A stretch of 32,000 nucleotides of DNA from Pseudoalteromonas tetraodonis (GTDB lineage: Bacteria; Pseudomonadota; Gammaproteobacteria; Enterobacterales; Alteromonadaceae). Below, in pieces: positions 2,830 to 12,803 of the stretch. Numbering within the stretch: the first letter of the stretch is position 1; the number at the start of each line of letters is the position of its first letter. The DNA lies in the NCBI RefSeq assembly GCF_002310835.1, contig NZ_CP011041.1, forward strand, positions 570,001 through 602,000, written 5' to 3'. Made by a program: the position numbers and the translations under genes. Under the pieces are notes generated by a model, which was given only the letters and a program-made list of their open reading frames with translations, was not told the DNA's origin and did no database searches.

Positions 2830-2888
2830 TTTTTGAACTTTAATTGGTAGTAAGTTCCACTGTAGAGTGGGGATTTATCGAAATTATG

Positions 2889-2919
2889 AAAGCCGTTGCA
2901 GCAATGCAACGGCTTTTTT
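2889..2919 (+). terminator. Rho-independent terminator of gcvP
   Basis: Perfect 10-bp stem agccgttgca / tgcaacggct (2891-2900 / 2905-2914), 4-nt loop, then a T-run (tttttt). Confidence 0.85.
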
Positions 2920-2950
2920 GTGTGAGGTGATTCGCCATAAATTATATGGG

Positions 2951-3380
2951 GTAGGTTGGGTAGAGTGAAACGAAGCCCAACGATTCTCCAATATCATTAC
3001 CATCTCCCAAGCACGTAAATATGCATTGTTTGTAGGTCGTCCTTTAGGGCGAAAAAAGCGAGAAAAAGAATTTCACCACAGAGATCATAGAGGCGCTTCG
3101 CGCTACACTGAGGGTAAATTTTGTTATAGGAGTCGGTTTTAGCCGTGAATGGTTTGTAGGTTGGGTAGAGCGCAACGAAACCCAACGATTCTCCAATATC
3201 ATTACCACCTCCCAAGCACGTAAATATGTATTGTTTGTAGGTCGCTCTTTAGGGCGATAAGTGAATTTCACCACAGAGAACTCAGAGGCGCTTCGCGCTG
3301 CACCGAGGTTAAAGGTATTTCTGTAGGAGCCAAGCTTGCTGGCGTGCGTGGTTTGTAGGTTGGGCTTTAGCCTGAAATGG
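2951..3380. repeat. Tandem cluster of REP-like hairpins (BIME-like): about 2.1 copies of a roughly 200-205 bp unit
   Basis: The unit restarts at 2951, 3156 and 3355 with gtaggttggg. Each unit holds several (t)gtagg-headed hairpins: gtaggttggg..cccaac, tgtaggtcg(c/t)c.tttagggcga, (c)tgtaggagccaagcttgctggcg / ttataggagtcggttttagccgtga, and gaggcgcttcgcgc. Copies 1 and 2 are near-identical over long stretches. Confidence 0.85.
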
Positions 3381-3399
3381 CTGATGGTTTTTATTGCTA

Positions 3400-3835
3400 A
3401 CTTTTGTCTGGATAAATCCGTGACCTAAATTAGAAACCTTATTCAAGGTTTTGTCGCGCTGGCGACGGCAGCCAAAGAGGGATCTATTTTCAAATTGACT
3501 CTGCTGCAAGCAATTCATCCCTGAAGCTGGGTTACTGTCGGCATCCATGCCTCCACTTCCTCATACTGCGAAGCTGCGCTTCGGTTATTCGTCATCTCCC
3601 TGCGCACCCGAGCATCACGCTTAATCCTTCAAATAATTAATTGATGTGAACGTAAACGGCGAAGATAGGCCATCTTTCACATCCCTGTACGCTCCCCAGT
3701 TCAGCCATCCATGGCCTCTCGTTCAAAGCTGCGCTTTTCACCCATGGCCTAGTTTCGCCTTATCGCGCATCCATGCGCGATATTACTCATCAATTGCTTA
3801 TTTTCAGGGCGTGATGACGGGGGGAGGGGATTAAA
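3400..3835. repeat. Second structured repeat block: short hairpins with a conserved CATCC(A/C)TG centre
   Basis: Hairpins ggcat-cc-atgcc (3540-3551), gccat-cc-atggc (3704-3715), cgcgcat-cc-atgcgcg (3764-3779) and ttca-tccc-tgaa (3514-3525). Recurring words gcgaagctgcgc and tcaaagctgcgc. The ORFs listed here (3309..3548-, 3646..3834+) have repeat-derived, non-protein-like composition. Confidence 0.7.
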
Positions 3836-3970
3836 CGTGAGGTTGGTGTTTGGTCTTGGCAAAGTGTAATGTTTATTGGTTAATATTTTTATGTATGTAG
3901 TAAAGTTTTGATTCCTTTGGTTCTTAGAATAGGTCTTAATAATTTATTGGACTAAAGACTAAATAAATGG

Positions 3971-4016
3971 CTCATAAACTGGATTTGTCATGCTGGTGGT
4001 AAATCCAGTTTATGAG
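3971..4016. repeat. Perfect 16-bp inverted repeat with a 14-nt spacer
   Basis: ctcataaactggattt (3971-3986) and aaatccagtttatgag (4001-4016) are exact reverse complements. It sits about 165 bp upstream of the first island gene, and no T-run follows. Confidence 0.8.
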
Positions 4017-4182
4017 GATGATAATCACTGTAAAGTTGTTTTTATCAGTGGGAGCTATAGAGCTTTTCTGTTAGATTAAATTAAAAAGACACAAAAATAC
4101 AAGGAGCTAGCTAATTTAGGTTTACAATTTTAAACCTAGGAGTATTGATTAGACAAAGTTAAATTAATTGCTGGAGTGTTTT

Positions 4183-5076
4183 ATGAATGGAACCTGCAAA
4201 CTATGTAAAAACCCAAGCGCTCTTGAAAAGAGCCATTTTATTCCCAAATTTATAGGTAAATGGTTAAAGAAAACATCCATAACAGGTTATATCAGAGAGA
4301 AAAATGAGGTTCATAAACGAGCTCAAGATCTTGCTAAAGAATATTGGTTATGCGGCAAATGTGAGGATCTCTTCTCTGATTGGGAAAGAGAGTTTTCTCT
4401 AAAAATATTTTACCCGTTTATTAATGATTCAACTACAAGAATGCCTTATGGCAATTGGTTGTCAAAGTTTGCTGCGTCTCTTTCATGGAGAACTCTAACC
4501 TTTATCAGAAGTAAAAATTTAAAAGATGAAACAAGCAAAAGTAAAGATTACTTGAAAAATTTAGACGGCGCAGAGTTAGCTTTAGCTAACTACCTCTTAG
4601 GTAAGACTGATAACCTTTTTCAATACGAACAACACATTTACCCTGTAGAAGCAATTGATACGCATAATGTAGATAATTTACCTAGGAATATAAATCGATA
4701 TTTTCTACGTAATATAGCAATGGATATCATAGGCAATGATAGTGAAACTTATATCTATACAAAGTTACCTAGCTTTATAATTTTAGGGGTTATTAAAACA
4801 AACGCCTCGAAAATTATTAGGAGCAGTCGAATATCAATCAAAGGAGATGTTCTAAAGCCAAGGGATTACACTTTTCCAGATGGCATAGCTGAATACATTT
4901 TCGAGAAAGCTGAAGAAATATCAAAAATTTATGATGAGATTCCAGTAAAGCAATTGGAGAAAATTAATAAGTTTATAAGTGATAATCCTGACAAAGTGAT
5001 TGAGTCAAAATTATTTCAAGCTATACAGCATGATTATGATCAATTTGGTTCTGAAGCATTTAAGAAAGAGAATTAA
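4183..5076 (+). CDS. HNH_5-like zinc-ribbon protein with an uncharacterised C-terminal domain of about 200 aa
   Basis: I place the start at ATG 4183 (GGAG at 4172-4175) rather than TTG 4168. The N-terminus reads C-x2-C (CKLC), x9-SHFIPKFIGKW, then LCGKCEDLFSDWE. This resembles the CxxC..EH[IV]IP..LGG..CxxCN layout of standalone HNH_5 nucleases, but with Glu where the Asn is expected. The remainder is not recognisable. Confidence 0.7.
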   Translation: MNGTCKLCKNPSALEKSHFIPKFIGKWLKKTSITGYIREKNEVHKRAQDLAKEYWLCGKCEDLFSDWEREFSLKIFYPFINDSTTRMPYGNWLSKFAASLSWRTLTFIRSKNLKDETSKSKDYLKNLDGAELALANYLLGKTDNLFQYEQHIYPVEAIDTHNVDNLPRNINRYFLRNIAMDIIGNDSETYIYTKLPSFIILGVIKTNASKIIRSSRISIKGDVLKPRDYTFPDGIAEYIFEKAEEISKIYDEIPVKQLEKINKFISDNPDKVIESKLFQAIQHDYDQFGSEAFKKEN

Positions 5077-6853: not shown

Positions 6854-7213
6854 ATGGAGCCTATTAAGTTGTGGTTTTTAACTCTGTTTCTTACATCTGC
6901 GGGTCTTTTCTTTTTTATAATATTACCAATTTTAATAGCTATAAAAGATAAAAAAACACGGTTGGTAGAGGATGTTCTAGATGATGGAAATCGTTTTTAC
7001 TCATTAAATATCATAACTGCTGGTAGCGGAGCATTGCACTACGGTTCTATATTTCTATTCGATTGGTATGCTAGACGTTATAAGGTAATAGAGGAGAGAG
7101 ATAAAGTACCCAAAAATTTGCAGATGTGGTTTAAGCTTTATTATATTTTATTTATAACATTTAGCTCTATGTTTTTATTAGCATGCCTCATGGCGTACTT
7201 TTGTTTAGATTAA
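6854..7213 (+). CDS. 3-TM membrane protein, paralog 1 of a tandem pair (possible immunity-type protein)
   Basis: 119 aa. Shares about half its residues with the next ORF, for example VEDVLDDGNRFYSLNI..LHYGSIFLFDWYARRY..RDKVP versus VEDILEHGNRYYSLNI..LHYGSVFLFDWYAKRY..RDKVP. Confidence 0.7.
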   Translation: MEPIKLWFLTLFLTSAGLFFFIILPILIAIKDKKTRLVEDVLDDGNRFYSLNIITAGSGALHYGSIFLFDWYARRYKVIEERDKVPKNLQMWFKLYYILFITFSSMFLLACLMAYFCLD

Positions 7214-7240
7214 CTGCTTTTCTTTTTTGTTGATTAAATA

Positions 7241-7567
7241 ATGGATTTGATATTTTTTGGTGTTGGCTTAAGTGTTATTTTTATCATTCTTTTACCTTTA
7301 GCTTTTTATTTAAAAGCAAAAAAGCTCAGAACGGTTGAAGATATTTTAGAGCATGGAAATCGCTACTATTCCCTAAATATTTTTATGGCGCTTCATGGTT
7401 TACTTCATTATGGCAGTGTATTTTTATTTGATTGGTATGCAAAACGGTATAATTTATTAAGTGATAGAGACAAGGTACCAGCTCACGTCTCGAGATTATT
7501 TAAAGTGTATTTTGTAATTTTTATGCTTTGCGCACTATTAATGTTTTCATCTGTATTCTTTGAATAA
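7241..7567 (+). CDS. 3-TM membrane protein, paralog 2 of the tandem pair
   Basis: 108 aa, collinear with 6854..7213 and separated from it by 27 bp. The conserved core motif is given above. Confidence 0.7.
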   Translation: MDLIFFGVGLSVIFIILLPLAFYLKAKKLRTVEDILEHGNRYYSLNIFMALHGLLHYGSVFLFDWYAKRYNLLSDRDKVPAHVSRLFKVYFVIFMLCALLMFSSVFFE

Positions 7568-7773
7568 AGACTTAGATTTTAAAGAGCAAAGGACTAAATA
7601 AAAGGAAAAAAGGTCAATGGATGAGCTTGTTAGGTCTCTTTTGGTCTATATAAATAAACTCCGTATTTTGACAAAGTAGTTTTGAGTGAGATTTAGTAAC
7701 TCTATTTCAAAGGTGTACATTAATTGGGGAAATATATAATATTGTTAATATCTAATATTAAACGGATTTAATT

Positions 7774-8202
7774 ATGGAAGAAGTTACATTTTTTTCAGAA
7801 AATAAAGTTAAAGAAAAATTACAAGTACATTTTGATGGCCTGCAAAACCAACAAGTATTATATGGAAAGAAGGTAGAAAAAATATTTAAAAGAAAAAATT
7901 GCACGTATATATTCTTTACCTCCGATGATTCTCCATACGAGGAGACATTATATATTACTTTGATTGATTCAAAAGGTGAGGTTATTGAAAGTGTTGAACT
8001 CTCGAAGCCGTATTCTCCAGGGATTTTGAAAGATTTAATAATTAAAAATGATCAAACGATTGAATTCAAATTTTGGGGGGATTCGATAAATAATTTAATT
8101 ATTGCCGACAAAAAAAAAGTGCATATTTCTCATGCAATACCTTCAAATGGCCTTCGTTACTCAAATAAATTATCACCAAGTTATCTAACAATAAAAGATT
8201 AA
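7774..8202 (+). CDS. Soluble 142-aa hypothetical protein, probably co-transcribed with 8214..9242
   Basis: Long ORF in AT-rich DNA, which would otherwise be rich in stop codons. Only 11 bp separate it from the next gene. No hydrophobic segments. No clear Shine-Dalgarno sequence. Confidence 0.55.
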   Translation: MEEVTFFSENKVKEKLQVHFDGLQNQQVLYGKKVEKIFKRKNCTYIFFTSDDSPYEETLYITLIDSKGEVIESVELSKPYSPGILKDLIIKNDQTIEFKFWGDSINNLIIADKKKVHISHAIPSNGLRYSNKLSPSYLTIKD

Positions 8203-8213
8203 GGTTTACAAAC

Positions 8214-9242
8214 ATGGACTCGTTTATTTCTGACAAAGATGTAGAAACTAGTATTAGGCAAATGGAAGTAGCAGCAATTAACTTTGGTAGTCGTTTCATA
8301 AATGATTCAAAAGTAAGGGCGCTATATATGGAACAGACAAAAAAAATGTCTTTGGAATTAGTTAATGCTTATAAGACTGGAGTCATAACACCTAAACAAG
8401 CTGCTGTAGCTGCGAATGAAATGCGAAATGAAATCATGGCTGTCTCTCGCAGTAAAACTAGTGATATTGGTAAAGCTAAGGTTGTTAAGTTAAAGGCCAG
8501 TGGTTTGAATTTAGAGGTATTACTAGATAAATATGCAAAAAGCCAGTTCGGTAAAGGTTTTGGCGAGCTAAATGAATCAGAAGCTTCATCTATTTATAAA
8601 AAGATAGTTCAAAGTGCAGGGAAGGCAAACCCTAACGTTAGCGCCAAAGCAAACAACTTAGGCAAAGCAGGGCGAAGCTTATGGGTACTTTCTATATGTA
8701 TCGCAGTTTATAATATTAGTAGTTCAGATAATAAACTCAAAGCGGCAGGACGTGAAGCAACTAACATTGGAGGTGGCTTTGCTGGAGGCGCCGCTGGGGG
8801 CGCGACTGCTGGCATCTGGTTTGGGCCTATAGGTGTAGCAGTAGGTGTTGTTGTTGGTGGAGTTTTGGGTTCTATTATATCTGATCAAGTATATATTGAA
8901 CTTGCAGGCCCAGATGGGGAGTTTGCCAGAAGCTTTATACCTCGCTTTACTAATGTTTTTTCTACTAATGAGAATAAAATGGCGAGTGCTTTAATTACTG
9001 AGTGTACATATGAATTAGATAAGGTAATGGCTGTTTTTATACAGTTGAATGATAAGTATTTTACAGATGTTGATGACATAGCAATTGCTTATATAGAGTT
9101 GATTAGAACAGGTAGGTATCCTCTTATTAAGCAAGCTCTATCACTAAATAAAGCTCTGAAAAATTATCTTATTCAGATACTGGGTAGCGGCTGGACATCG
9201 TCTTCTGAGAAAGAATGCATAAGGTACCTTCGCCATGTTTAG
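8214..9242 (+). CDS. Glycine-zipper membrane-hairpin protein (candidate pore-forming or membrane-active protein)
   Basis: 342 aa. An amphipathic helical N-terminal half comes first, then AKANNLGKAGRSLWVLSICIAVYNI, then NIGGGFAGGAAGGATAGIWFGPIGVAVGVVVGGVLGSII (repeated GxxxG/A), then a soluble C-terminal region of about 110 aa. Confidence 0.75.
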   Translation: MDSFISDKDVETSIRQMEVAAINFGSRFINDSKVRALYMEQTKKMSLELVNAYKTGVITPKQAAVAANEMRNEIMAVSRSKTSDIGKAKVVKLKASGLNLEVLLDKYAKSQFGKGFGELNESEASSIYKKIVQSAGKANPNVSAKANNLGKAGRSLWVLSICIAVYNISSSDNKLKAAGREATNIGGGFAGGAAGGATAGIWFGPIGVAVGVVVGGVLGSIISDQVYIELAGPDGEFARSFIPRFTNVFSTNENKMASALITECTYELDKVMAVFIQLNDKYFTDVDDIAIAYIELIRTGRYPLIKQALSLNKALKNYLIQILGSGWTSSSEKECIRYLRHV

Positions 9243-9624: not shown

Positions 9625-10371
9625 ATGGAAGATCTATTTATAAGTTTATTTGCAAATGTCGGCGTTATATTACTTTTAGTTTTGATATTAAAAGCAATTA
9701 AAAAAGTTGATTTAAATCTAATGTGGTCTTTGATTTCGTTAGGTATTTTAGTTTGCTACTTTTTTGCTTTGTTTAAAGGTGGAAAGGTTATTCTCTTGGA
9801 TATGCTTTTTCCTGATATGTCGTGGAATTGGTCTGGAAAAGTAGCGGCAATAATCCTTTGGTTAGTCGTACTATTAGCTTTAGTTAAATTTAAAGCTAAC
9901 TTTCGTATTGCAGATGCTGGTTTTACTTTTAAGCAAAATGAAAATTCTATAAAACCCGCTTTTACAGTTATGTGCTTGTTTATCATTTTACAGATAGTTG
10001 TATCACTTTTTTGGAGTGGTGAACCTAATTACGATTTAGAAACCTTACTTTATCAAGCAACAATGCCAGGCTTTGATGAAGAGCCTATGTTTAGAGGGAT
10101 TCTTTTATTTTGTATATCTTTGGCAATTATATCTGAACGCTACAGTTTAGGTGGTGCGTCAATTAACATTGCAGGGTTGCTCTTAGTGGTGTTATTTGGA
10201 CTAGTTCATGGCGTTATGTTTAATGGTGGAGAGTGGCACTTTTCTTTCCCCGCTATTTTATTAACAGGTGGCTACGGTTTTATTTTGCTTTGGCTAAGAG
10301 AGCGCACAGGGAGTTTGGTGTTCCCTATTTTAGCCCATAATAGTGTTAACTTTGTTGGGCAGCTAATTTAA
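9625..10371 (+). CDS. CPBP family (CAAX/Abi-type) intramembrane glutamic metalloprotease
   Basis: All three family motifs occur in order inside a polytopic membrane protein: EEPMFRG (EExxxR), LFGLVHG (FxxxH) and ILAHNSVNF (HxxxN). AGAGG Shine-Dalgarno sequence upstream. Confidence 0.85.
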   Translation: MEDLFISLFANVGVILLLVLILKAIKKVDLNLMWSLISLGILVCYFFALFKGGKVILLDMLFPDMSWNWSGKVAAIILWLVVLLALVKFKANFRIADAGFTFKQNENSIKPAFTVMCLFIILQIVVSLFWSGEPNYDLETLLYQATMPGFDEEPMFRGILLFCISLAIISERYSLGGASINIAGLLLVVLFGLVHGVMFNGGEWHFSFPAILLTGGYGFILLWLRERTGSLVFPILAHNSVNFVGQLI

Positions 10372-10454: not shown

Positions 10455-10540
10455 AGTGACATTAGAAAGTTCCATTCAAGCAGGCAGCTGTGTTTTCTTG
10501 ATGTTTTTATTCAAAAACCAAGTATTGTTACTTTTTCAAC
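10455..10540. repeat. Dispersed intergenic repeat, copy D, at the distal edge of the island
   Basis: See copy B. The ATTAGAAA..TCAAGCAGG..ATTCAAAAA..CAAGT blocks are shared in the same order and orientation. Confidence 0.65.
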
Positions 10541-10877
10541 CAATTTAAATATGGCTATGGACCTAGTAATGGCCTCGATTGGTGAGAATATGCGCTATGG
10601 CTTGGGTAAAGAACGCCCTATGAATTTGAGCCTTTGGTTATCGGCTCTGTCATCGTTTAGTGTCAGTATTATTTTTAGCCACATTCACGCATTCAGCCAT
10701 ATCAATTGAGCCTGTAAACGGTGTCTTTCCTTCATAACAAAACGAGCCGTTTTATATAGGAGACTGTTAAAAAAGCACTAAAACTGATAAAACTGTACTT
10801 TGCAAAATTTTAATTGCATTGAATGTATAGGCATTAACTTTATTAAGTGCATGCCATACCAAGCAAAGGGAGAAGCA

Positions 10878-11927
10878 ATGAGCTCTGATAGCAACTATAT
10901 TCGCAGACTATTAGCAACCATTGGCATTACAGCTTTAGCAATAGGCTTATTTATGCTGCTGTGGCAATTATCGTATGTGTTATTGCTTATATTTGGCGGG
11001 ATTTTATTTGGTGTTTTTTTAATAGGGCTTGCGAGCCTGTTACAGCGTTGGCTACCTTTACCCAGATGGGGACTGGTAATGCTTGTTACTGCTACCGTAT
11101 TGGGGTTATTAATACTTGCTGGCTACTTGGTTGGTCCCGCTATTATGGATCAGTTGTTACAGCTTAGAGAGCAAATAACTGGTGGGGTAAAACAGTTAGA
11201 AGGTTACTTGAAGGGTAAAGAGTGGGGCGAGGCTCTGCTTCAGTGGGCGCAAGGGCAATGGGAACAAGCACCACTTTCACCAAGAAAGCTGATGGGGGAA
11301 GTTTCCGGGGTCTTTTCTACTTTATTTGGTTCACTTGCTGATATATTTGTTATTTTATTTATTGGTTTTTACCTCGCATTGCACCCTAAACCTTATAAAA
11401 AAGGGGTGCTATTTTTATTTCCAAGTGATAAACGCAGCCGCATAAATGAAGTAATGCACAGTGTATATTATGCATTGAAGTTATGGTTAATGGGCCGTGC
11501 AACATCAATGATTGTGGTCGGGCTTTTAACCGCGTTAGGTTTGTGGCTTATTGATATGAAATTGATAATGGCGTTGGCATTGCTTGCGGGTTTGTTATCG
11601 TTTGTGCCATTTATAGGACCTATTGCCGCTTTGATACCTGCGGTATTAGTCGCGTTACTCAATAGCCCAACCCAAGCTGCGTATGTACTAGTCGTGTACG
11701 GTGTTGTACAAGTGCTCGAGAGTAATGTAATAACACCGTTTGTACAAAGAACAGCTGTTTCATTGCCGCCAGCAGTTATGCTTGGTGGGCAATTATTGAT
11801 GGGCGCTATGTTTGGAATTCATGGCTTGGCGCTTTCAACGCCGTTGTTAGTATCAATTATTGTCACAGTGCAGATGCTCTATATACGGGATGTTTTAAAA
11901 GAGAAAATCCAACCATTAGGGCAGTGA
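10878..11927 (+). CDS. AI-2E family transporter (PerM/YhhT/TqsA-type, UPF0118)
   Basis: I place the start at ATG 10878 (GGGAGA upstream) rather than the listed TTG 10800. Polytopic membrane protein with the family-typical GLLSFVPFIGPIAALIPAVLVALL segment and overall layout. Confidence 0.85.
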   Translation: MSSDSNYIRRLLATIGITALAIGLFMLLWQLSYVLLLIFGGILFGVFLIGLASLLQRWLPLPRWGLVMLVTATVLGLLILAGYLVGPAIMDQLLQLREQITGGVKQLEGYLKGKEWGEALLQWAQGQWEQAPLSPRKLMGEVSGVFSTLFGSLADIFVILFIGFYLALHPKPYKKGVLFLFPSDKRSRINEVMHSVYYALKLWLMGRATSMIVVGLLTALGLWLIDMKLIMALALLAGLLSFVPFIGPIAALIPAVLVALLNSPTQAAYVLVVYGVVQVLESNVITPFVQRTAVSLPPAVMLGGQLLMGAMFGIHGLALSTPLLVSIIVTVQMLYIRDVLKEKIQPLGQ

Positions 11928-11937
11928 TACGTTAAAG

Positions 11938-11975
11938 AAAGTGGCAAGTTATATAAATATAATTTGCCACTTTTT
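11938..11975 (+). terminator. Rho-independent terminator of the AI-2E gene
   Basis: aaagtggcaa / ttgccacttt: 10-bp perfect stem, then ttttt. Confidence 0.7.
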
Positions 11976-12065
11976 ATGCCTATTAATTAACAAGTTACTC
12001 TTGTGTAGCCAACATAAAACATATTGGTTAGATGGCTGTTTAATGTTGAGCGGCGAGGTTTGCTT

Positions 12066-12803
12066 TTACTCTGCAGCATGGGGTAAAACAAATGAGAGTG
12101 TGGCTAAATGCTCTGTTTTATCAAATACATTTAAATTTGTGCTTTTTTCGTCATAGATTGCGGCTACTACGTTTAAGCCTTGGTTACGCAATGGCAATGT
12201 GACCAAGCCGTCATCATTACTAATTATTGGCTCTTGATCTGGGTCGTTTACTAAATCATTGATTACTTTAGCGCCTTGAACCGCTTTGCTATTGAAAGTT
12301 ATGCGGTAGCTGACTATTGCGCCTTTTTGATCTGAAAATTCGTTACCTACAGGTAGGATTTGTAATTGCTGATTTTTAAGTGCAGGTACTTGGGCAAGCG
12401 GGCCACGCAAATGTACTGCGTACTTTTTAGTATGTTCGCTTAATAGTGCATTGGGGATTTCATCTCGACCTTTAGCAAACCATTCACCTTCTTTTGTTTT
12501 ACTCCACAACCCATTATCGAGCATACCAGTAATCGCATAAACGCTTTTATCACTTAGCAGCATCATAGGCCCTGATTCAATAAGTTTTACGTTTTTTAGT
12601 TGCCAGTTTTTATTATAGCCAGTAATGCTTTTAATTTTATTTTGTCGTTTTACGGTATCTAAATCTTGTGCGCCTTCGCCATATATAAAGGCTACCTGTG
12701 ATGAGCGCTCTGCAAACCATATTGCATGAGCCTGTGCTTGTTCGCTGTATGCGCTTGATATTGAAGTGACTAATGCCATGCAGGCGAAAGGTAATATTTT
12801 CAT
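12066..12803 (-). CDS. DUF4198 domain periplasmic protein (accessory protein often found with TonB-dependent metal uptake)
   Basis: Signal peptide MKILPFACMALVTSISSAYS. The mature N-terminus AHAIWF resembles the H-x-H/W start typical of DUF4198. About 245 aa, beta-rich. Divergent from a TonB-dependent receptor gene. Confidence 0.7.
   Translation of the reverse strand: MKILPFACMALVTSISSAYSEQAQAHAIWFAERSSQVAFIYGEGAQDLDTVKRQNKIKSITGYNKNWQLKNVKLIESGPMMLLSDKSVYAITGMLDNGLWSKTKEGEWFAKGRDEIPNALLSEHTKKYAVHLRGPLAQVPALKNQQLQILPVGNEFSDQKGAIVSYRITFNSKAVQGAKVINDLVNDPDQEPIISNDDGLVTLPLRNQGLNVVAAIYDEKSTNLNVFDKTEHLATLSFVLPHAAE

Follow-up and report, generated by a model that had tools for sequence, protein, structure and literature searches.

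A glycine-zipper protein and its soluble beta partner in Pseudoalteromonas tetraodonis: a candidate membrane toxin-immunity cassette of an unnamed family

The locus and the glycine-zipper protein

We analysed a stretch of 32,000 nucleotides (nt) from Pseudoalteromonas tetraodonis (contig NZ_CP011041.1, positions 570,001 to 602,000; "the window" below), with a focus on two adjacent genes for a 142-amino-acid (aa) and a 342-aa protein, which we call partner and toxin for the roles that we propose for them (Table 1). The 342-aa and 142-aa proteins are identical to ADT67501.1 and ADT67499.1, which the sources assign to P. tetraodonis; ADT67501.1 is annotated as "hypothetical protein". An initial annotation, made from the sequence without database searches, had singled out the 342-aa open reading frame (ORF) as a candidate pore-forming toxin, and the ORF is present exactly as quoted, with the features described for it borne out in the main.

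Table 1. The two genes and the segments of their products, in window coordinates.
Feature	Position	Strand	Description	Evidence
Partner gene	7774..8202	+	proposed cognate immunity/antitoxin, 142 aa	ORF, AlphaFold2 model, co-occurrence
Spacer	8203..8213	+	partner stop to toxin ATG, 11 bp	sequence
Toxin gene (putative)	8214..9242	+	342 aa, ATG start; N-terminal toxin module and C-terminal accessory domain	ORF
Toxin module	8229..8894	+	aa 6-227	match boundaries in 682 representative clusters, architecture census, PAAR fusion
Hydrophobic helix	8673..8723	+	aa 154-170 (RSLWVLSICIAVYNISS)	sequence; within model helix 140-170
Glycine-zipper hairpin	8766..8882	+	aa 185-223, central G204-P205 turn	GxxxG count, invariant Gly, pLDDT<50
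C-terminal helical domain	8895..9239	+	aa 228-342, 342-aa clade only	pLDDT>90, invariant columns

In the toxin module, helices that make up about 150 aa are followed by a single hydrophobic helix and then by a glycine-zipper helical hairpin of 39 residues. For the first of these parts, the initial annotation had described about 170 aa of amphipathic helices. The stretch is indeed helical, if shorter, and its hydrophobic moments do not rise above those of sequence-shuffled controls (p = 0.04-0.8); "amphipathic" is to be read in a qualitative sense only. The hydrophobic helix RSLWVLSICIAVYNI stands before the zipper segment, and across 43 homologs its residue Y166 is invariant, with L156 and N167 nearly so.

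In the hairpin itself, no charged or amide side chain occurs over 39 consecutive residues, of which 14 are glycine. It holds 9 overlapping GxxxG motifs, a count that was reached by none of 10,000 whole-protein shuffles, while the zipper-triplet count of the toxin was reached in 8 of 10,000. G187, G188, G191, G196 and G204 are invariant across the 43 homologs, and the G204-P205 turn is invariant or nearly so. The Gly/Ala zipper noticed in the initial annotation is thus real, being both beyond chance in shuffles and conserved, and the toxin has the conserved extended (G/A/S)xxxGxxxG pattern within a hydrophobic segment by which glycine-zipper depolarising toxins are recognised.

We modelled the toxin with AlphaFold2 from the 43-sequence alignment (mean predicted local distance difference test score, pLDDT, 75.9). 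The model is all-helical, and its predicted template modelling score (pTM) of 0.45 denotes low global confidence. The C-terminal domain is the confident part (pLDDT>90 over approximately residues 233-341) and carries the invariant residues E253, D285, D287, Y293 and G326-W327-T328. Pfam scans of 18 members and a profile search of the Protein Data Bank (PDB) gave no match for this domain, and Foldseek no significant one. The domain is missing from short relatives and from relatives fused to a PAAR domain, in both of which the partner is kept. For the toxin as a whole, Pfam, NCBIfam and PADLOC scans returned no significant family, only weak glycine-zipper noise; the PADLOC library, which dates from 2023, gave nothing on the window proteins beyond a match to a transmembrane segment (LeoBC, E=0.0095).

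The partner gene

The partner gene ends with a TAA stop codon at 8200-8202, and an AAGG Shine-Dalgarno-like element, which overlaps this stop, lies about 10 nt before the toxin ATG at 8214. No terminator-like site was found between the two genes by promoter and terminator scans, which were uninformative in that promoter-like sites were fewer than in shuffles. The short spacer with its AAGG implies that the two genes would be co-transcribed and their translation coupled.

The partner has neither a signal peptide nor a transmembrane segment. Its AlphaFold2 model is all-beta, with 12 strands (pLDDT 89.5, pTM 0.86), and on this basis we confidently predict a cytosolic all-beta protein of a new family. 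Searches of Pfam, NCBIfam, PADLOC and PDB sequences yielded no match, and Foldseek returned just weak, partial beta-propeller blades (E=0.035, TM score ~0.5). The chaperone families Eag/DUF1795, DUF4123 and DUF2169 were considered for the partner and rejected, as none had a Pfam match. Through a profile search we collected about 30 relatives of 117-180 aa, mostly of ~145 aa, which have an (S/C)PYEE-x-LH(I/V)-x-LL motif in common.

We next asked where these relatives are encoded, using 21 loci that come mostly from exact-protein look-ups and are not a random sample; a scan of genome contigs with a Gly-rich pattern gave at least 4 loci. With a hidden Markov model search of six-frame ORFs, a partner homolog was found directly upstream of the toxin in 14/14 loci of the 342-aa type, which span Gammaproteobacteria, Myxococcota, Burkholderiales, Pirellulaceae and metagenomes. 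In loci with short-form toxins from Frateuria (L004) and a metagenome (L013), the partner is instead directly downstream. A member of the partner family also lies 10 bp downstream of a toxin fused to a type VI secretion system (T6SS) PAAR domain (hhalign 99.3%, E=4e-20). The adjacency expected of an effector-immunity pair is thus found in all 342-aa-type loci, in two short-form loci and in the PAAR-fused loci. The distant short forms of Eleftheria (L007) and of L014 have unrelated neighbours, as expected for polymorphic pairs.

Partners are 24-42% identical to the window protein, compared with 40-71% for the toxins, so that the partner diverges about twice as fast. In Thaumasiovibrio subtropicus (L009), two tandem partner paralogs (6903-7403 and 7466-7993) precede the toxin. 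Both fast divergence and tandem duplication are typical of immunity genes. The initial annotation had proposed the tightly coupled 142-aa neighbour as a chaperone, adaptor or immunity partner; it is well supported as the cognate partner, and the immunity option fits best because the same family fills the downstream immunity slot of the PAAR-fused toxin. We conclude that the partner probably neutralises the N-terminal module, and that it is neither a partner of the C-terminal domain nor a member of a known T6SS chaperone class.

Some way downstream of the short-form pair in L013, by a few genes, we observed an Imm51 family immunity protein (10484-10837) and an ADP-ribosylglycohydrolase; these surroundings suggest a small cluster of immunity and conflict genes.

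Domain architectures of the family

A word-indexed search retrieved 129 homologs, all annotated as hypothetical, which are full-length forms of ~342 aa from Pseudoalteromonas, Agarivorans, Thaumasiovibrio, Microbulbifer, Simiduia, Marinobacter, Hahella, Myxococcota, Planctomycetota and Hyphomicrobiaceae. The only other database name in the family is "glycine zipper family protein". An exhaustive HMMER search gave 682 clusters (at 50% identity) that match the toxin at E<=1e-3, and the boundaries of these matches delimit residues ~6-227 as a separable module. We surveyed architectures in the best 148 of the 682 cluster representatives. Most of these (99) are standalone proteins of ~235 aa, and in 27 the module forms the extreme C-terminus after an extension of at least 80 aa. 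The extra C-terminal domain of the window type is present in 13, and 7 have other C-terminal extensions. Within the 342-aa clade, length is strictly conserved across phyla.

The N-terminal extensions are informative. In P0179/P0300 the N-terminus is a T6SS PAAR domain (Pfam E=4.7e-18; NCBIfam 143 bits versus a curated cut-off of 124), and the module is the C-terminal domain of this PAAR protein. On the Paraburkholderia plasmid pOLGA2 (L008, 8352-12351), a PAAR coding sequence abuts a toxin homolog that is interrupted by IS21; past the insertion sequence, at 11905-12351, the Gly-zipper remainder is still detectable. Some module-bearing proteins have PG_binding_1-like N-termini. P0137 (494 aa) is a 342-aa-type protein extended by a terminal HINT/pretoxin-HINT-like domain, and P0169 (Mariniblastus sp., MDB2686765.1, 1360 aa) begins with the module and carries an Endonuclea_NS_2 nuclease towards its C-terminus. 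Fusions to PAAR, HINT and nuclease domains are the domain grammar of polymorphic toxins, and it follows that the module is likely to be a toxin cassette that the T6SS can deliver. The suggestion of a membrane-targeting toxin has thereby become very probable, given that the same module is the C-terminal payload of a T6SS PAAR protein. The module and the partner are unnamed families without an entry in Pfam, NCBIfam, PADLOC or PDB, and the impression that this is not a described system is borne out for the toxin family by the curated libraries, none of which names it (Pfam, NCBIfam, PADLOC).

As a side observation, P0169 and P0137 hint that the module can also act as a membrane-translocation device. 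A stronger version of this idea, namely that in the 342-aa proteins the module is a translocator that takes the 115-aa C-terminal domain, the real toxin, through the cytoplasmic membrane of the target, would have a model in Tde1, which permeabilises the membrane and reaches the prey cytoplasm by means of an N-terminal glycine zipper (PMC10240207). The placement of the nuclease in P0169 is in line with it, as are the resemblance of the module to membrane segments of phage ejection proteins and the invariant acidic residues E253, D285 and D287, which could form an active site. However, in PAAR-fused proteins and most other members the module stands at the very C-terminal end, where it would have no cargo. 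Moreover, the partner tracks the module and not the C-terminal domain, no conserved extra gene could neutralise a toxin in that domain, and the domain resembles no family of toxins or enzymes. We therefore regard a translocator role in the 342-aa proteins as improbable.

Relation to colicins, ClyA and phage proteins

In its overall order, with helices first and a hydrophobic helical hairpin after them, the protein recalls colicin pore domains, to which the initial annotation had likened it. Indeed, both are helical proteins with a hydrophobic helical hairpin that is presumed to enter the inner membrane. On this reading, the toxin would be a bacteriocin-type domain homologous to PF01024 (Colicin), in which a soluble bundle buries the hairpin. 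However, the toxin has no match to PF01024 at E<=1, and a search of all PDB sequences with the 43-sequence family profile at E<=10 found no colicin, only ClyA/HlyE at E=0.14, a match that falls on the ClyA beta-tongue. Foldseek of the toxin model (pTM 0.45) against PDB retrieved neither a colicin pore domain nor ClyA, the best hit having E=0.7. The helices are not seen to wrap around a buried hairpin, which is unmodelled, and instead of the ten-helix globular bundle of colicins the model has long helices, a comparison limited by its low pTM. Colicins are accompanied by a small integral-membrane immunity protein, whereas the conserved neighbour here is a soluble all-beta protein. Finally, the window protein has none of the receptor-binding and translocation domains of colicins, and there is no lysis gene. 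The colicin-like organisation is thus not upheld, and we rejected colicin homology or fold as very improbable. A ClyA/HlyE-type alpha pore-forming toxin was likewise rejected, the beta-tongue match being the sole trace of it and Foldseek giving none.

Residues ~105-226 (nt 8526-8891) match phage tail-associated lysin, endolysin and tape-measure families in PHROGs (E=2.5e-12), and the match to phrog_1047 recurs in 31/43 family members. For phrog_1047, phrog_10341 and phrog_167 alike, the likeness is confined to the hydrophobic, Gly-rich segment, and the lysin or tape-measure architecture is not present in the toxin. In phage tail proteins, the matching region is their hydrophobic segment. Phage tail proteins and the toxin family both come from contractile or tail-like injection contexts. 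The similarity and the weak ClyA beta-tongue match may reflect a membrane-penetration segment that these proteins share, or may be partly compositional. A phage origin of the gene was considered and rejected: no close relatives of the toxin were found in IMG/VR viral contigs or 50,697 phage genomes, and Foldseek of the model against BFVD was not significant (best E=0.06).

A candidate toxin-immunity cassette

Taken together, we consider it probable, from sequence conservation and analogy, that toxin and partner form a two-gene cassette of a membrane toxin and a cytosolic immunity protein. The partner would be made first, from a transcript common to both genes, and would bind the toxin in the cytosol and keep it out of the membrane of the producer. 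Neutralisation in the cytosol is suggested by the strict co-occurrence of the two proteins in three architectures and by a precedent, since the glycine-zipper depolarising toxin EsxX is neutralised in the cytoplasm by the soluble zipper-binding protein ExiB (PMC12744356). When unopposed, the hairpin and helix 154-170 would insert into the cytoplasmic membrane, where the GxxxG faces of the hairpin could bring about oligomerisation and so yield a channel that conducts ions, as described for TelE, EsxX and Tse5-CT. By analogy with other glycine-zipper toxins, the channel would dissipate the membrane potential. A membrane target is supported by the uncharged hairpin, the invariant glycines and the local similarity to phage lysin and tape-measure proteins. 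The C-terminal domain would have an accessory role, in loading, solubility or regulation; it is unlikely to be a second toxin, because there is no third conserved gene to neutralise it and the partner accompanies the N-terminal module also where the C-terminal domain is absent.

Genomic context and the question of export

In the window, the pair lies in a low-GC stretch (29-37%, versus 41-46% at the outer flanks) that extends from behind gcvP (28-2829) up to a gene for an AI-2E transporter. Beyond the pair, nothing is conserved among the related loci. Those in Thaumasiovibrio, Simiduia, Marinobacter, Hahella and Pirellulaceae have housekeeping neighbours. The Microbulbifer locus (L006) is flanked by type I restriction-modification and AbiLi/AbiLii genes, the Agarivorans and Pseudoalteromonas sp. 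A3 loci (L005, L015) have dGTPase-like neighbours, that of strain A3 together with IS110 and Y1 transposases, and in L018 an AbiEii module adjoins the pair. ParDE and HigBA are encoded near the PAAR-fused form. Overall, defence-gene neighbours occur in ~4/14 loci, a figure that has no statistical control and is only suggestive.

The housekeeping surroundings of many loci, and the fact that database names do not go beyond "hypothetical" or "glycine zipper family protein", would be compatible with a housekeeping or stress membrane protein, for example a membrane-anchored scaffold, for which the beta protein serves as an assembly chaperone. Against such a non-toxin function stand the scattered occurrence of the family among phyla and its location in variable islands, the PAAR, HINT and nuclease fusions that place the module among polymorphic toxins, and a partner whose rapid divergence and duplication resemble those of an immunity gene. 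We judge that there is little chance of its being correct.

The more serious question is whether the toxin leaves the cell. As a fuller statement, the cassette may include export of the toxin as an interbacterial effector, either as an orphan or as cargo, without a delivery domain of its own; we put this forward tentatively, as a possibility that falls somewhat short of probable. Use as an effector is slightly favoured by the PAAR-fused sister pairs, by the immunity-like evolution and duplication of the partner, and by the frequency of the T6SS in the genus, in which ~70% of Pseudoalteromonas genomes are predicted to encode one (a genus-level figure; PMC13245728).

Several points weigh against the proposed cassette, and in particular against its export. 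As the initial annotation had correctly stated, no PAAR, Rhs or MIX delivery region is found in the 342-aa protein by Pfam and NCBIfam scans, nor is any other domain of these libraries; without an N-terminal PAAR domain, the window protein is not a specialised (PAAR-fused) T6SS effector. No T6SS genes were seen among the window ORFs scanned against Pfam, nor within ~8 kb in the related loci with gene calls, so that the linkage to vgrG, hcp, PAAR or adaptor genes that marks T6SS cargo effectors is seen neither in the window nor in the related loci. By comparison, ~70% of Tme effectors have an adjacent T6SS gene (PMC7046647). Immunity proteins of T6SS pore-formers are almost always membrane proteins, and a purely cytosolic one is atypical. 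With the immunity gene in front and a coupling of 11 bp, the pair has more the look of a type II toxin-antitoxin operon. On the structural side, the toxin model has a low pTM and leaves the key hairpin unmodelled (region 186-231, pLDDT<50); this is, however, as expected for a segment that would fold solely in the membrane or in a complex. Finally, toxicity, membrane insertion, partner binding and secretion are all inferred from sequence, context and analogy.

Some of these points would fit a chromosomal toxin-antitoxin or abortive-infection module that derives from a T6SS effector family and is never exported. Phage infection or loss of the cassette would remove or titrate the partner, upon which the toxin would depolarise the inner membrane of its own cell from inside, with the C-terminal domain as a sensor or regulator. 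The two-gene arrangement is that of type II systems, with the neutraliser first, the short spacer, and the order kept in all 14 loci. In these 14 loci, the cassette is self-contained in unrelated contexts, without secretion genes nearby. The partner is cytosolic, the length of the 342-aa clade is strictly kept across phyla, the window copy is located in a low-GC variable island downstream of gcvP, and elsewhere restriction-modification, AbiLi/AbiLii, dGTPase and AbiEii genes and insertion sequences adjoin the pair. On the other hand, neither protein is matched by a PADLOC model, and the partner has no DNA-binding domain (helix-turn-helix, ribbon-helix-helix or AbrB; no Pfam or fold match), unlike classic type II antitoxins. 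Relatives were not found in the viral contigs and phage genomes, the defence-neighbour signal comes from few, uncontrolled loci, and the existence of a PAAR-fused pair suggests that the ancestral logic was interbacterial. In our estimate this alternative is somewhat unlikely as such, and use in toxin-antitoxin or abortive-infection roles is nearly as likely as use as an effector. A more specific form of the idea, which we think a little less likely again, is that the 342-aa clade constitutes a secretion-independent, phylum-spanning defence or addiction system that arose from a T6SS pair, with an all-beta zipper-sequestering fold and the C-terminal domain as the trigger sensor.

We also made a number of observations on the surroundings of the pair. 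In four genomes from three genera, i.e., Pseudoalteromonas (twice), Agarivorans and Simiduia (window, L005, L010, L015), gcvP lies upstream of the island that holds the pair; the island content after gcvP differs in each, which suggests that variation or integration recurs at this spot. In the window, gcvP and the low-GC island are separated by 1.3 kb (2830-4167) with no convincing ORF and no Rfam match. At 2951-3377 there are direct repeats ~200 nt apart, with 105-nt copies that are 92% identical and a 33-nt core present three times, and a perfect 16-nt inverted repeat is located at 3971-4016. A gene of the island (4168-5076, + strand) encodes a 302-aa Cys-rich protein with CxxC...CxxC near its N-terminus. 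It matches phrog_26326 (E=1e-51), a family of unknown function, and no Pfam or PADLOC entry; the gene may serve defence or belong to a mobile element within the island.

Closer to the pair, 6854-7213 and 7241-7567 (both + strand) encode tandem paralogous small membrane proteins without a family, which are 51.5% identical and have RxYSLNI...HYGSxFLFDWYAxRY...RDKVP motifs in common. On the other side, 382 bp downstream of the toxin gene and with its own promoter-like site, a gene on the same strand (9625-10371) encodes an intramembrane protease of the CPBP/Rce1 type (Pfam E=7e-11; NCBIfam CPBP_Sphingo at E=1.4e-47, which falls below the cut-off). The CPBP family is often linked to bacteriocin self-immunity. 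The paralogs and the CPBP gene had initially been put forward as possible partners of the toxin. This proposal does not stand, since they are absent from all 20 related loci; the 302-aa ORF at 4168 and the other window neighbours recur in 0/20 as well and were likewise rejected as parts of the system. The window neighbours are missing even in a strain in which the pair is 91%/85% identical.

Significance

Naming the toxin domain, with its 682 clusters, and the immunity family would improve the annotation of T6SS and polymorphic-toxin loci, with gains in marine Gammaproteobacteria, Myxococcota and Planctomycetota. For a soluble cytosolic beta protein that neutralises a pore-former there is a single recent precedent, ExiB for EsxX, and soluble immunity raises the question of where and how membrane toxins are intercepted. 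With its PAAR-fused, standalone and C-domain-bearing, reversed-order pairs, the family offers a tractable case in which to ask how interbacterial weapons turn into chromosomal cassettes resembling toxin-antitoxin or defence systems. The similarity to phage lysins and tape-measure proteins hints at a membrane-penetration module common to phage tails and T6SS payloads. Should the defence or addiction reading be the correct one, the 342-aa clade would represent a new class of abortive infection and the first purely cytosolic immunity to a membrane toxin in Gram-negative bacteria.

Comparison with known systems

The T6SS-linked toxins Tse4, Ssp6 and the Rhs-borne glycine-zipper toxin Tse5-CT contain segments that are hydrophobic or rich in GxxxG, and ion-selective pores have been proposed as their mode of action. 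Immunity to them comes from proteins of the membrane or periplasm, and their genes are usually in or beside T6SS, vgrG or hcp loci. Some small depolarising effectors of the T6SS are cargo without a recognisable delivery domain. Compared by description rather than by sequence, the window family differs from Tse4, Ssp6 and Tse5-CT in its cytosolic immunity protein and its orphan loci.

The Tme/Tmi pairs of Vibrio parahaemolyticus resemble the family in that Tme is a widespread, modular, C-terminal membrane-disrupting T6SS domain that is also found fused to PAAR (PMC7046647). The defining trait of Tme is a DxxK motif with one Asp-flanked transmembrane helix after it, its immunity proteins have 3-6 transmembrane helices and are DUF1240-like, and a T6SS gene stands immediately upstream of ~70% of Tme genes (PMC7046647). 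By this definition the two are set apart, as there is no DxxK among the invariant columns of the family and the partner is a soluble beta protein without a DUF1240 match. Tme, the large colicin-like TpeX/VasX and Tke5/BTH_I2691 were rejected as identities of the toxin, a judgement made by their published definitions only.

In Tde1 of Agrobacterium, a glycine zipper likewise lies N-terminal to another domain, and a small protein encoded upstream binds the zipper region, as we propose for the partner (PMC10240207). There, however, the upstream gene encodes a DUF4123 adaptor, and the zipper is short and helps an Ntox15 DNase to translocate (PMC10240207), whereas here a module of ~220 aa is usually the terminal payload and the C-terminal domain is not a known toxin.

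Functionally, the closest system is EsxX-ExiAB of the Staphylococcus aureus type VII secretion system (T7SSb; PMC12744356), with ExiB as the best functional analogue for the partner. EsxX has an extended glycine zipper near the end of its helical domain, as does the toxin, and ExiB is a soluble protein, encoded by a neighbouring gene, that sequesters the EsxX zipper in the producer cytoplasm. There are clear differences, too. We detected no sequence relationship between EsxX and the toxin, and the delivery of EsxX relies on its LXG domain and a Gram-positive T7SS. Both ExiA and ExiB belong to the alpha/beta proteins of the DUF5085 family, whereas the partner is all-beta and without a family. 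In addition, EsxX has the membrane immunity proteins ExiCD, and no conserved membrane partner is present here. Glycine-zipper membrane toxins with adjacent immunity genes are already known. What is new is the unnamed family, the fold of its soluble immunity protein, the clade-specific C-terminal domain, and the occurrence of PAAR-fused, standalone and reversed-order forms.

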